From Eledone cirrhosa (Eukaryota), in contig OZ024743.1 in assembly GCA_964016885.1 (NCBI GenBank), positions 325,004,001 through 325,068,000 on the forward strand: a DNA stretch of 64,000 nucleotides, written 5' to 3'. The notes under the pieces are model-generated. The model searched no databases. It was not told the DNA's origin and worked only from the letters and a program-made list of their open reading frames with translations. Both the position numbers and the translations under genes were made by a program. Numbering within the stretch: the stretch's first letter is position 1; each line of letters opens with the position of its first letter. Positions 7,652-62,184 of the stretch are shown here, in pieces.

Positions 7652-8110
7652 CACAATATATTAACAAATGGAAACTATATTTATAAAACCATATTTATTT
7701 TATTATACATATTTCAAGGGCCACCAAGGCAAATTATGGTGCACTTTCATCAGATAAAATACAATACAGATTAGTTTTATAAATAAATATTGACATACCC
7801 TGAAAAAAACAACCTTAACGGTTGGAGCATCATGGATAGTCATGACTATCCATGATGCTCCAACCGTTAAGGTTGTTTTTTTCAGGGTATGTCAATATTT
7901 ATTTATAAAACTAATCTGTATTGTATTTTATCTAATGAAAGTGCACCATAATTTGCCTTGGTGGCCCTTGAAATATGTATAATAAAATAAATATAGTTTC
8001 CATTTGTTAATATATTGTATATTTACTCCACTTAACTGTTGAGTGCTTTATATCACTTATAAAAATGTTTAAGCTTGTTGAATCTCAACAAATTAAATAT
8101 AACCTCTGCA
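7652..8110. mobile_element. (TA)n-flanked fold-back element with a hammerhead in each arm (PLE-terminus-like)
   Basis: Spacerless palindrome centred at 7842/7843, arms ~180-190 bp; the right arm continues ~90 bp to the next (TA)n. Confidence 0.85.
7697..7760 (-). ncRNA. Type I hammerhead ribozyme
   Basis: rc: attttat CTGATGA aagtgcacca...tggtggccctt GAAA tatgta TA ataaaat, with a 7-bp stem I. The mirror copy at 7925-7988 has CTAATGA. Confidence 0.8.
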
Positions 8111-8265
8111 TATATATATATATAGGTGCTACGTGCCTAACTCTATGTCTAGTCCTGTTACCTCTATATTTGTGTGAGCGGTTGGTGTCGATGTTAGTAG
8201 GTTTGTTTGAGTTGTCTTTATCCATTATAAACTGCAGCTTTTTTTATCCGTTATAAACTGCAGCT

Positions 8266-9745
8266 ACACGTGTACGGTGAACTTGGGCAACTCCATGGCA
8301 TTATATTGGATCCACCGCGGGTACATTTAAAAAAAGATGGTATGTGCACAGACATTCAATGAAGATCAATGCACTTATAGGTTCTATGACCCTCGCCAAA
8401 AAATCTGGGAACTTAAGGACAATAACATCAACTACAATATCAACTGGTCGAGGTTGTCGGCCGCAAGGGCATACAGTACCGGTATGTCCTATTGTAGGCT
8501 CTGTGATCTTGAATTACTGTATATCCTTAGGAAGGAAAAAAGGCTACTCAACAACAAGATAGAAAGATCAATTTTCTGCAGACACAGGATCGCCACTAAA
8601 TTCACAAGATTTAAGCCACCGTCATTTGAACCAACATAACCTAGCATTCAACATATGAAATCCACACTATTACACAAACCACCACAGAACTATAATATTC
8701 ATTAAGCAGATTTTAGCCTCCTTAATTCTATACCACAGTAATGTCTGCAAATATCTTATCAATCCATAAATATATCCCTTCTCAGCTGCTGTCAACACAA
8801 CTTCCTCACCCTTGATTCTCAACAGATGAACCTAAATCCAAGTACATTATCAGAATACTACCACAGGAAAACATCACCTTCCTCCTGTTGTTATAATTGT
8901 AGTCAGCATGTTTTCTCTATATATATATTGCCTCCTTAACCTCTGTATACTTACCTATTATATTGCTACTCTGTTAATGTTATCTTATACATGTATGTTG
9001 TTGATGTGAAAGCTAACCAACCTCATGATTCGAACTAACAATCCCTTCATCTAATATAGACCACTTAAATATTGAATCCACTTCACACCACAAAAATTAC
9101 TATCCTCACTACAATGATAAATATTTTTTCTGTCAGATAATAAATAATTCTTACGGTCACCAAACCTACGGTAAAGGAAATGGTATATTGTTTAAAGCCC
9201 AGGCTTATCTCTACACTATATATAATACACCCCATGACAGCTTTTACATGTCAATTTCATACATCTGCCTCATATCAGCTCGTTTTACATGCTAAAGTCA
9301 TAAGTATACTCTATGTCTTACTTAGATTGATGTTGTGATTATTTCAACTAATTTATTGCTAGCATTGTTAGTATTGTTGTTATTGTTCTGATTTAATGCC
9401 ACTACTATATATAAAAGCCATGCCTGTGTATTCCCTTCATTCTCGCAAGCTCTGATGAATTGACTGGTTATAACTATGTATTGGTGATTGATTGATGCGA
9501 AAACAGGCGGGTAGCGATCTCTAGACCCACCAGTTCAGAGAAATAATTGTCAGCAATGTGATTAAAGCCCTTATTGTATAGCAACCCATGTAACGCTTCT
9601 TTCTTGATTTATCATTACTCCAAGAGGACTCACAACATCACTATGGAAACGCCTTGTTAGCCAAGCATTGATACCATCCACTACTCGGAGTACCCTAACT
9701 GGACTACACCTAAGTGGACTACCTATAACAATAATCTGTTATGCC
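8266..9745 (+). mobile_element. Penelope-like retroelement 3' fragment: GIY-YIG endonuclease remnant, 3' UTR, degenerate hammerhead
   Basis: YIGSTAGTFKKRWYVHRHS...TLAKK, frameshift near 8400, then IWELKDNNINYNINWSRL...YCRLCDLE...LLNNKIERSIFCRHR, typical of PLE endonuclease C-termini. CTGATGA at 9452 and GAAA at 9499. Lies between (TA)n runs. Confidence 0.85.
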
Positions 9746-9979
9746 GTATATATACATATATATATATATGTGTGTATTTGTGTATGTATATATATATATA
9801 TATAAAGAGAGAGAGGGGGGTGTAGAAGTATATAATGCATAATTTAAATTAAGTAGAGAAGGCAAATATGGTAGTGATGGTGGTGTAACAATGGTGGTAG
9901 TTGTGATGATGATTATGCTGGCAGTGGTGATTATGATAATGATGGTCACGATGATGATGATAATTTTCTTTTCCTCCAG

Positions 9980-10064
9980 CTCACACTAGGACCCGGTGTA
10001 ACAGCCAATGTTATTGCTGCAGCTGTTCAACAAGGTCAAAACCTCAACATTGATGCAGACACTG
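9980..10064 (+). CDS. ELP1: ELP1 penultimate coding exon
   Basis: Acceptor ttttcctccag. Reads LTLGPGVTANVIAAAVQQGQNLNIDADT (cf. VLGPNSTANSIMASYQQQ). Donor G|GTAACT, phase 1. This frame is not in the ORF track. Confidence 0.9.
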
Positions 10065-59663: not shown

Positions 59664-59719
59664 ACTGCTATATATATTTCGATGATAGCCATTGAATGGC
59701 TATGACCTCACCAGGCAGT
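59664..59719 (-). ncRNA. Type I hammerhead (A6>G), same family as 26525-26579
   Basis: rc: actgc CTGGTGA ggtc-atagccat-tca-atggctat-catc GAAA tatata TA gcagt; stem II shows a compensatory change relative to the 26525 copy. Confidence 0.75.
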
Positions 59720-61359
59720 TAGTCAGTCCTTAGATATGCCAGCTCTGTGTTTATGGTGTTGATGGTATCAGAGCCTTGACACACACACACACACACACAC
59801 ACACACACAAATAACTATAGAATTATTTGATTCAAGAAAAGAAGCCAATACTAAAATTGAACCAAGAAAACAATGTTTCAATTGGTTTTTCCATTGTTGA
59901 TATTATCTGTTAACAACAACTGCTGGCAAAAGAAAGGAACTGGTCATGGGATTGGACCAAGGAAACAATGTTTCCATTGGTCTTTCATTTATTGATACTA
60001 TCTGTTAATCGCAACTGCTGGCAAAATAAAGTACCAGTAATGCACACACTGGGGGCGATTTGATTCCCCCCCCCCCCCCCCCCCAAAAAAAAAATGTTCG
60101 CTTTGCACCTAAATCAGAGACCATTATTCAATGATACTGGATTGGCAGTATTGGTAGATCGTCAGACATCATGCTTTGCAGCATCGAGTTACACCCTTTT
60201 ACATTCTGAGTTCAAATCATGCCAAGGCTAGATTTGCCTTTAATCCTTACAAGGTCGACAAAATAAAGTACCAGTAACACACTGGGGTCGATATTATCGA
60301 CTTCCCCTCCCCAAAAATTGCTGTCCTTGTTCCTATAGTAGAAATCATTATTATTATCATAATTTTTAATCCCAGATGAACTTAACTGATCAGGTTGTCA
60401 TAACTATATAGCCCTGGCTAAAACTTTCAACCCTCCCTCCTCCTAAACAAAGCAAAGGTCACTTGGAAATAACAATCAATAATCCTTGACCTGGAACTTC
60501 TCTGGAAAGGTTGTGCAACACTTCATATGTCAACCTGAACACCAACATGTTTATTAACCAAAAATATTTATTATCCTATGCCACCACGGAAAACTGCTTG
60601 TAAAGTGATAATTAATTTTAAAAAAAATTGAAATTTCACTGTTACTTTGTTGTTGCTATTGTAGTTGTTATGTGAATGGTGCATGGCTCAGTGATTAGAG
60701 CAAGTTCTTAAATACTACTTTTCTATGGCCCACAACAACAATTTTCATGACTAATATTTTCATAACTCAGTAATTTGTCCATGTTTTATGAAAATTGATC
60801 ATATTACAATTTATTGTAATTTACCCATGGAATACAATAAAATGGAAAACAACTTAATTTATCAAATGCGAAAACAGAAAAAAGGGGATTTACTAAAATT
60901 TGCCAAAATAGAATTATGGAAAATTTTAAATGGAAAATTTGTTCCCCTACATTTTATACTAATTTCCATATCCCACATACTAATATATGCATATTTCTTT
61001 TAAGGTAAAAAAAAAAATAGCCACCTATAACTGGTGGAAATCACTCTGCCTTCCCTCATCATACTTTTGGCCCACTGGGCCTCTTTCCTAGGACATAATG
61101 GCCCTTTTGAGTCCTGTGAGTGGCTGTGAGTTTGATTGATGGTAACGTGTTGTGTCCTCCTTGCATAAGACACTTTATGTCCTCCTTGCATAAGTCCACT
61201 CTGTTGGAAAAAAATGTGTTGTACCTGTAATTGAAAGGGCCAGCCTTGTCACTCACTGTCCTGCTGAATCTCACTGAGAATTATGTTTAGTGTATACATG
61301 TCTAGAATGTTCAGCCACTCCATGCTAATTTCATAAGTAGGCTGTTCTGTTGATCAACA

Positions 61360-61598
61360 TTGTTGTTATTGTAGTTGTTGTTGCTATTGTAGTTGTTGTT
61401 GATGGTATTGTAGTTGTTGTCATTGTAGTTATAGTTTTTGTTGCTATTGTTGTTGTTATTGTAGTTGTTGTTGATGGTATTGTAGTTGTTGTCATTGTAG
61501 TTATAGTTTTTGTTGCTATTGTTGTTGTTATTGTAGTTGTTGTTGATGGTATTGTAGTTATAGTTTTTGTTGTTGCATTGTAGTTGTTGCTATTGTTG
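61360..61598. repeat. Degenerate (GTT)n tract with a higher-order duplication
   Basis: Trinucleotide-based repeat; the block gttgttgttgatggtattgtagtt occurs three times. Confidence 0.85.
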
Positions 61599-61984
61599 CA
61601 CAGGGAAGGTTATGATAATCTCTCCATGTAACTGTAAAGTACAATTATACAGTCCCCTGCAATATGTAAAGGTCAAATAAATGGTATTTATGTTGGTGGT
61701 GGTGTTGGCGGTGGTGGTGGTTTCTTATTGGGCTATCTTGAGAATGGAAAGTTGAAACATTTCCCACAGCAATGTTAAAAAACTTGTGATTTTGTTTTGT
61801 TGACATTGAGGTAGTCATTGTAAAACACAGTGTCTGTCTGTCTGTCTGTCTTTGTGTGAGCACATAACACTACACAGATTTGCATATATCACGCTACAAC
61901 TTTATGTATGTGTATATATATGTATGGATACAATACGGATTCTTTGTTCCCATTTATTATTGTGTGATATATATATATATATAT

Positions 61985-62184
61985 AACAAAGGAATTGTGG
62001 TAAGGAACCAGATGCACCCTAATGCACCAGAGTACTCAATACTTAGGGTAGTAGAGTGGGAAATAGGAAAAAGTATGACCCCGATGGCAGAGCTCAAGCC
62101 ATTTCGACGGCTATTTCTGGACTAGTCCAGAAATAGCCGTCGAAACGGCTTGAGCTCTGCCGTCGGGGTCATACTTTTTCCTAT
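61985..62184. mobile_element. Short fold-back element, same family as 59381-59591
   Basis: Centre ctggact|agtccag at 62123/62124; same tail sequence; (TA)n flanks. Confidence 0.85.

Follow-up and report, generated by a model that had tools for sequence, protein, structure and literature searches.

The window analysed here is a stretch of 64,000 nucleotides from Eledone cirrhosa (assembly GCA_964016885.1, contig OZ024743.1, positions 325,004,001 to 325,068,000). It is AT-rich, contains many TA tracts and belongs to a genome of 3.0 Gb. Palindromic inserts with type I hammerhead ribozymes (HHRs), solo HHRs and a long tandem array lie beside or between these tracts (Table 1). We propose, with a probability of about 0.8, that the TA-tract palindromes are products of retrotransposition of Penelope-like elements (PLEs) into (TA)n, with double-strand priming at two sites on one RNA. 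Judged by their sequence, six of the ten fold-backs listed in a first-pass annotation of the window are severely 5'-truncated 3' ends of PLEs that encode a reverse transcriptase (RT) and a GIY-YIG endonuclease (EN), five of them Hydra-type and one Neptune-type. The fold-backs at 44.6 and 52.9 kb belong to non-coding monomers of 430 and 310 bp that occur in dispersed tandem arrays. The annotation had suggested a single PLE-type mechanism targeting (TA)n, which is supported here. Its picture of a community of tiny retro-modules is not supported in that form, as six fold-backs are ends of ordinary coding PLEs of 4-6 kb; just the 310- and 430-bp families are shown to be small and non-coding, and the 39.4-kb insert is a relative of one of them.

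HHRs were searched for with a type I descriptor consisting of the core CTGAnGA or its U3-A8 variant TTGAnAA, stem II, GAAA, a palindromic stem III, UH and a stem I of at least 4 bp, with unpaired nucleotides tolerated at the base of stem II. Both departures have precedent among PLE HHRs, where the U3-A8 core occurs, as does an unpaired base 5' of stem II (PMC4209133). A strict descriptor with the CTGAnGA core only overlooked most motifs, and a third, permitting a long stem II, recovered one of three long HHRs of the 59.5-kb family; counts rest on the second (type I) descriptor or on the union. Rfam covariance models gave no hammerhead family in the window at E<=5, and only hairpin-type microRNA noise. 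The type I descriptor found 29 whole HHRs, each with a conserved core, stems I and II and a palindromic stem III, or 31 if stem III need not be palindromic, compared with a mean of 0.0 (maximum 0) and of 0.33 (maximum 2), respectively, in 100 block dinucleotide shuffles. The 310-bp array and its inverted arm hold 21 of the 29. Against the approximately 40 motifs counted in the first pass there are thus 29-31 whole ones; 40 is reached only if about 23 array copies are counted together with about 11 half or decayed motifs. Over all loci, 91 distinct matches have the C3-G8 core and 15 the U3-A8 core, the descriptor admitting just these two.

The descriptor was loosened after the window examples were known, and the test outside the window therefore carries more weight. 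In 200 kb outside, the cut site lies at most 200 nt upstream of a (TA)>=4 tract in 11 of 14 HHR matches (2.9 expected). In the window, with the array collapsed, this holds for 10 of 12 matches (2.3 expected). Neither count was reached in any of 100,000 simulations, although a few of the tracts counted are element-internal. In 20 shuffles of the outside sequence the mean was 2.7 matches and the maximum 7; some 3 of the 14 outside HHRs are therefore probably due to chance. The 100 kb around the window (loci L171-L180, 50 kb per side) are TA-poor, have long diverged repeats on the right and contain a single HHR match; the window is therefore denser than its neighbourhood. An AATAAA within 60 nt past the cut, described earlier as frequent, follows 5 of the 12 non-redundant window matches.

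We conclude that the HHR is not the defining feature of the palindromes, because one palindrome outside the window (L181:6332) has no HHR and corresponds to the 3' terminus of a coding PLE family; the motif, at a distance of 50-180 nt from the element's 3' end, is present only if the arm is long enough. Among the ten fold-backs, each said to contain a whole or half HHR, nine contain all or part of one. The motif is whole at 7.7 (-7753), 26.4 (both arms), 39.4 (-39472), 44.6 (both arms) and 52.9 kb; at 29.3 kb the core and stems II and III are complete but stem I has just 2-3 bp; and at 43.4, 59.5 and 62.1 kb a 3' half remains, the 5' core having gone through truncation. No convincing HHR was found at 22.8 kb, where the large palindrome is two copies facing a central TA tract and not a fold-back. 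A half HHR considered there was rejected, as its GAAAC sits within a plain hairpin with no core upstream; by eye, 22879-23089 reads as a long-end arm, a turn and a short-end arm. Of the five proposed solo HHRs, those at 24.6, 28.6 and 41.9 kb are whole and those at 26.8 and 59.7 kb decayed, and the one at 24.6 kb has no (TA)4 within 1.3 kb downstream. Among ten palindromes outside the window that are flanked by TA on each side at no more than 130 bp, three carry a whole HHR by descriptor and one more by eye, two a half HHR supported by family members, and three none, while one is two copies converging on one TA tract. The earlier rule that most (TA)n-flanked palindromes carry an HHR is thus right for about 60-70% outside the window (6 of 10 whole or half) but is not strict.

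Coding parents were found for all six truncated fold-backs. A genome search for GIY-YIG gave 10,596 candidates, of which 150 were scored and 20 with long frames retrieved; these are mostly RT+GIY-YIG PLEs, and many are divergent inserts between TA tracts. Among them is L096, an element of full length whose RT+GIY-YIG frame spans 938 aa and whose terminal repeats are 97.8% identical and contain an HHR each. In L096, L098 and L099 GIY-YIG scored above the cut-off, as did RVT_1 in one, the other two lying just below, and all three have the DKG motif, CX2-5CxxC linker and C-terminal GIY-YIG of the Neptune clade. The 29.3-kb family follows GIY-YIG open reading frames (ORFs) and is present at 10 of the 20 loci; its direct master (L113/L114) is known from the C-terminal part only. 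The family of the 43.4-, 59.5- and 62.1-kb inserts lies 3' of a 710-aa ORF (L216) and the 26.4-kb family 3' of broken ORFs (L215), while the 7.7-kb family is linked to the ORF of L223 via a collinear untranslated region (UTR) in L202/L209. In long copies of these three families, 1.3-1.5 kb of upstream sequence reach ORFs with Hydra-clade motifs, namely RWK and DKT (L215) or RWR and DKT (L216), followed by CNCPDRSIC/CNCRNPESC, CNLC/CKLC and CKH/CRH; CCHH is absent from both, with no CxxC directly before the YIG motif. A single ORF with RT and C-terminal GIY-YIG is indicated by alignment of the L216 frame with a Neptune-type RT+EN (448 aa, 23%, E 7e-7) and by the L215 EN piece, which matches GIY-YIG with an E of 7e-4, below the cut-off. 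L216 had no Pfam and no solved-structure match; among its atlas neighbours at 0.99, HTH_animal is found in 25-38% of the members. The Hydra-type families also have HHRs and insert into (TA)n, whereas the size of less than 3 kb typical of the clade is exceeded by L215, which measures about 4.3 kb from terminal repeat to 3' end. Both clade labels were assigned by motifs only. The PLE structure of pseudo-long terminal repeats (pLTRs), an inverted 5'-truncated copy and a tail at one end is present, the tailless 29.3-kb family being the exception. Two further loci (L106, L112) represent a third PLE type with YVDD and a short linker, Penelope/Poseidon-like by motif.

Long copies of the 59.5-kb family have a complete HHR with a U3-A8 core, long stem II and stable stem III; it is thus truncation that has left halves in the window. 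TT was rejected as the cut site, because in long copies the cut falls at GTC, following a stem III of 5-6 bp. Exact-pattern counts are given in Table 1; reversed-pattern controls gave none. The extension towards PLE partners called for in the first pass thus led to coding masters for six fold-backs, but not for the 310- and 430-bp families; no coding parent of the 22.8-, 24.6/26.8- and 28.6-kb families was found among the loci examined.

The ends of the inserts follow a rule: in all families except that of 29.3 kb, arms stop at one of two fixed sites beside (TA)n. Of 59 two-arm inserts from four families, 56 pair a fixed short end on one arm with a fixed long end, 26-97 nt beyond it, on the other, both at (TA)n. 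The pairing was found in 10 of 11 inserts of the 310-bp family, 9 of 9 of the 26.4-kb, 28 of 30 of the 59.5-kb and 9 of 9 divergent inserts of the 7.7-kb family; the three exceptions are a locus-edge artefact (310-bp) and two atypical ends (59.5-kb), and no true short/short or long/long pair was seen among the 59. Six ORF-bearing Neptune-type inserts show the same asymmetry. In the 430-bp family, recounted after about 56 of 60 rows had been dropped as low-complexity artefacts, six inserts are short/long, one has its tail cut and one is ambiguous. In the three Hydra-type families the one-sided tail, annotated as 80-100 bp, measures 80-97 bp; it is shorter in the 310-bp (26-34 bp) and 430-bp families (about 56-59 bp) and is lacking at 29.3 kb. 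The arms are unequal, as noted in the first pass; the difference is nevertheless a pair of fixed 3' ends, not a short and a long arm. In the window array the short-end arm has 22 units and the long-end arm 1, and at another locus (L031) they have 1 and 7, so neither arm is always a copy of the other. Eleven of 15 retrieved insertions of the 310-bp family are divergent and none convergent; all 11 are short/long, two being duplicates of one event. Their turns occur at varied positions with an overlap of 0-4 nt. Locus-specific variants are common to both arms at all 7 informative 310-bp loci, and in three other families divergence is lower between arms than between loci (4.1 vs 9.5%, 1.2 vs 1.9% and 3.0 vs 7.4%). 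In one chimeric two-arm insert (L032:1290-1964) an arm of the 7.7-type family is joined to an arm of the 310-bp family.

Both monomers, of 310 and 430 bp, are non-coding, the longest ORF starting with M in the former being 30 aa and the longest ORF in the latter 68 aa, and form tandem arrays with type I HHRs. The window units of the 310-bp array differ at 0-2 positions each and the HHR core is intact in 20 of 22; the predicted cut falls at 46521 and recurs every 310 bp. Arms of this family range from less than one unit to about 30 units. Within the first 112 Mb of contig C1 the family forms 14 separate clusters. Folded as a circle, the 310-bp unit has a z of -4.7 relative to 100 shuffles. The 430-bp unit occurs in head-to-tail arrays and also as single copies wrapping through the HHR site. 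In some of its arrays (L225; C1:49585542-49588098) the exact pattern recurs every 842 bp, which corresponds to alternating units and a higher-order dimer. Five loci (L044, L047, L076, L166, L196) hold non-coding inserts that resemble the 310-bp unit in its 3'-end region (73-82%); by eye, some of them have what looks like a U3-A8 HHR with a stable stem III. The 310-bp unit was also compared with four public sequencing runs whose sample kind is not recorded, none being listed as RNA and three being labelled as other organisms. In these three (X4, X5 and X6) it is assembled as a single closed contig of 310 nt, the contigs being 99% alike, and a circle and a collapsed array explain this equally well; a related species, contamination and a shared RNA are all compatible with its presence there. 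The sole three variant sites listed in the four runs are HHR position N7 and loop II, where change is tolerated.

Table 1. Features of the window, with exact matches of the family pattern in the genome.
Position	Strand	Feature	Details	Exact matches
7652..8109	both	Divergent two-arm insertion, Hydra-type PLE 3' end	Left arm (-) to short site, right arm (+) 91 bp beyond; tail 8019-8109; whole HHR core -7753, one-mismatch core +7932	853
8124..9746	+	5'-truncated Hydra-type PLE copy between TA tracts	Frameshifted GIY-YIG fragment ~8260-8600, long 3' UTR; no HHR by descriptor; absent from first-pass list	
22669..23271	.	Short-insert cluster between TA tracts	HHR none detected	3
24520..24650	+	Solo whole HHR	Core 24584	
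26271..26727	both	Divergent two-arm insertion, Hydra-type PLE 3' end	Whole HHRs -26375, +26530; 97-bp tail 26631-26727	4,524
26767..26890	-	Decayed relative (85%) of 24.6-kb HHR	Core 26835	
28590..28750	+	Solo whole HHR	Core 28632; family present at 8 other loci	
28845..29688	both	Divergent two-arm insertion, Neptune-type PLE 3' UTR	U3-A8 core with weak stem I in each arm; shared end site, no tail	
39310..39606	both	Old two-arm insert	~78% like 310-bp family 3'-end region; whole U3-A8 HHR -39472	
41830..41972	-	Single-arm 3' end with U3-A8 HHR	Core 41915; 70-78% like end of Neptune-type L096 family	
43400..43570	both	Two-arm insert, Hydra-type 59.5/62.1-kb family	3' half HHR; right-hand 80-bp tail	at least 27,655 (family)
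44209..44859	both	Two-arm insert, non-coding ~430-bp monomer family	HHRs -44510, +44632; long end left, short end right	5,898
44860..46076	.	Imperfect (TA)n tract beside array	Flank	
46077..52826	-	310-bp monomer array, 21.8 head-to-tail copies	1 HHR per unit (20 intact, 2 core-changed); ends at short site	at least 2,575
52825..53076	+	Inverted arm of 310-bp array (254-bp)	HHR core 52876; ends at long site adjoining (TA)n	
53077..53990	.	Imperfect (TA)n tract beside array	Flank	
59381..59588	both	Two-arm insert, Hydra-type PLE 3' end	3' half HHR in each arm; 81-bp tail 59381-59461	at least 27,655 (family)
59619..59778	-	Single-arm relative (~82%) of 26.4-kb family	One-mismatch core 59714	
61985..62184	both	Two-arm insert, 59.5-kb Hydra-type family	3' half HHR; 81-bp tail 61985-62065	at least 27,655 (family)

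The architecture, the fixed pair of ends, the shared variants, the coding masters and the non-coding monomers are shown by the sequence; double nicking, a single RNA template, HHR cleavage, a circular template and the PLE that mobilises the arrays are what we infer. A PLE protein with RT and GIY-YIG domains would nick both strands of a TA tract, and each free 3'-OH would prime reverse transcription on the same RNA, one at the fixed long site and the other at the fixed short site 26-97 nt upstream. Both cDNAs would halt early at variable points and be joined head-to-head via 0-4 nt of microhomology. The resulting order would be (TA)n, arm, turn, arm, one-sided tail and (TA)n, and the 3' ends of the two arms would point away from each other. 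The use of one of two sites on one RNA by each nicked strand, followed by such joining, itself a presumed step, would thus produce the end rule. The HHR, situated near the 3' end of the element, would be carried along when the arm is long enough. In vitro, an anole PLE cuts AT-rich DNA on both strands and extends each of them, its RT starting at two internal positions that mark the limits of the genomic tail (PMC11167929). The 310- and 430-bp monomers are probably excised by tandem HHRs, circularised and inserted by borrowing the same PLE enzymes. Their template would comprise many units: either a circle, formed when tandem HHRs cleave and the product is ligated, or a multimeric transcript left uncut. 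A circular template would allow each arm to run many laps. Whether these units are retrozyme-like circular RNAs with minimal PLE-type HHRs, copied by rolling from two fixed starts at once so that divergent arrays arise in one step, we regard as an even bet. It is bolder still to suggest that the closed 310-nt contigs in the three runs are the circle itself.

Several points weigh against this proposal. The anole HHR is dispensable for insertion and cleaves only with protein (PMC11167929), and 8 of 9 frog retrozyme dimers showed no cleavage in vitro (bioRxiv 10.64898/2026.07.22.740005); the window HHRs may therefore be weak or idle. The tail is absent from all three two-arm copies of the 29.3-kb family, and no coding parent of the 310- and 430-bp monomers was found among 225 loci, the 430-bp unit having been searched via its window copy only. 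Loci retrieved by exact-match patterns were listed from the start of contig C1, which biases the sample to young copies. Shared arm variants could also be attained by gene conversion between arms or by local expansion. They are equally predicted if only one arm were RNA-primed and the second arm and tail arose at the DNA level, through fold-back or template switching on the first cDNA, together with resolution by the endonuclease at the short site. Craig et al. ascribe the tail to EN-mediated resolution (PMC8557442), and turns of the 26.4-kb family cluster near a spacing of 310 bp, beside an internal hairpin. We nevertheless judge a DNA-level second arm improbable, since either arm can be far the longer in the 310-bp family, RT starts in vitro match the tail ends in another PLE (PMC11167929) and the L032 insert joins arms of two families. 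For the arrays alone, PLE-type insertion of a short dimer might have been followed by satellite-type expansion in place through unequal exchange, with no circular or long multimeric RNA template, a route that has been discussed for retrozymes (bioRxiv 10.64898/2026.07.22.740005). Units are near-identical within a locus and the flanking TA tracts are themselves expanded, both of which fit. Expansion in place does not readily explain the 14 separate clusters, most with intact PLE-type ends, nor that both inverted arms are often multimeric. Among the 21 window units compared there are 8 variants, 7 of them private and 1 common to two non-adjacent units, which also argues against it; we consider local expansion possible but doubtful.

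If the palindromes were miniature inverted-repeat transposable elements (MITEs) or other foldback DNA transposons at TA sites, the HHR would be incidental. This is probably true of a palindrome of 436 bp at 42952-43387 that the first-pass annotation had not listed. It adjoins TA on one side, contains no HHR and has 596 exact matches, the first 100 of which include 16 pairs, 15 of them with arms 217-236 bp apart; it thus looks like a fixed-structure, MITE-like element. The listed families, in contrast, have variable turns, asymmetric ends, frequent single arms and continuations into RT/GIY-YIG ORFs, and for six of the ten fold-backs the coding masters refute a MITE origin, which makes it very unlikely as a general explanation. 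Fold-back chimeras of long reads or of the assembly might be suspected from the perfect young palindromes that exist. They would give no reason for two fixed, different ends beside (TA)n in 56 of 59 inserts, and arms differ by 1-4%, as the annotation had itself argued from arm-to-arm substitutions; we find an artefact scarcely credible.

Double-strand priming on one RNA resembles L1 twin priming, in which both target ends prime on one RNA and a 5' inversion results. L1 differs in having a variable second site and arms without overlap; here both sites are fixed and the overlapping arms produce a palindrome. Among PLEs, those of the Hydra clade with a C-terminal EN (PMC8557442) are closest to the masters of the 7.7-, 26.4/59.7- and 43.4/59.5/62.1-kb families, sharing RWK-like, DKT, CxCX5C, CxxC and CxH motifs, the HHR, the (TA)n target, an inverted 5'-truncated copy and a one-sided tail. 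They differ in that tails are 80-97 bp here and 30-40 bp there, in that 3' UTRs here are 1.3-1.5 kb and elements about 4 kb rather than less than 3 kb, and in that one family here has at least 27,655 exact end matches, whereas that paper describes few families outside cnidarians. Neptune-type PLEs, with DKG, a CX4CxxC linker, a C-terminal GIY-YIG with CxxC, HHRs in their pLTRs and a microsatellite target, match the masters of the 29.3- and, more distantly, the 41.9-kb inserts, except that the 29.3-kb family has no tail. The arrays resemble animal non-LTR retrozymes (PMC7229834; bioRxiv 10.64898/2026.07.22.740005) in their non-coding monomers of about 300-430 bp, one type I HHR per unit, dimers to about 30-mers and low GC. 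Unlike retrozymes, which have canonical HHRs, they carry HHRs with the geometry of the minimal PLE type (6-bp stem I and palindromic stem III), are divergent and lie in (TA)n with PLE short and long ends. Opposite-strand pairs of minimal HHRs in Schistosoma (PMC4209133) are similar in lying 100-700 bp apart, in the solo motifs derived from truncated PLEs and in the U3-A8 variant; the end mapping and TA context are added here.

HHR-bearing, inverted, TA-targeting PLE fragments are thus known in general, including inverted 5'-truncated copies, one-sided tails of 30-40 bp and (TA)n targeting in Hydra and other PLEs (PMC8557442). Dependence of retrozymes on PLEs has been proposed from co-occurrence and likeness to pLTRs, with the mechanism left open (PMC7229834; bioRxiv 10.64898/2026.07.22.740005). 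What is new is the PLE end architecture on the non-coding arrays of the 310-bp (and 430-bp) family; neither this nor statistics on short/long pairing were found in the literature searched, which mostly excluded subscription papers. As units without genes carry a PLE insertion signature, their sequence suggests that they hitch-hike on Penelope enzymes. Both the enzyme that moves animal retrozymes and the origin of the inverted ends and one-sided tails of PLEs are stated as open in these sources (PMC8557442; bioRxiv 10.64898/2026.07.22.740005; PMC7229834), and a young family of at least 2,575 exact units makes both questions testable, since a single genome provides its mapped starts, a defined target and the candidate enzymes. 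Abundant small TA-flanked palindromes, at least 27,655 exact end matches in one family, are explained as PLE 3' ends that might be mistaken for MITEs. If circles are indeed copied by rolling, the arrays would be a direct genomic signature of PLE enzymes moving animal retrozymes, and the PLE tail and inverted 5' copy would be one event.

Other features of the window concern its remaining repeats and its setting. An old inverted repeat (67%) at 14695-15119, likewise absent from the first-pass list, adjoins TA on one side, has no HHR and by eye is akin to a repeat at 40250-40440. A long interspersed nuclear element, which we take to be RTE-like, occupies 54880-56660 within TA tracts and has an RT-coding stretch and a (TGA)n tail; fragments of it lie at 53991-54810 and 43589-44206. 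Stretches at 7140-7197 and 39630-39686 are tRNA-like heads (Rfam tRNA, 36.5 and 24.5 bits), presumably of copies of a short interspersed nuclear element. Two exon-like stretches on the + strand (9980-10070 and 63610-63910) are both preceded by an AG acceptor, and the former is followed by a GT donor; the window inserts may accordingly be intronic.

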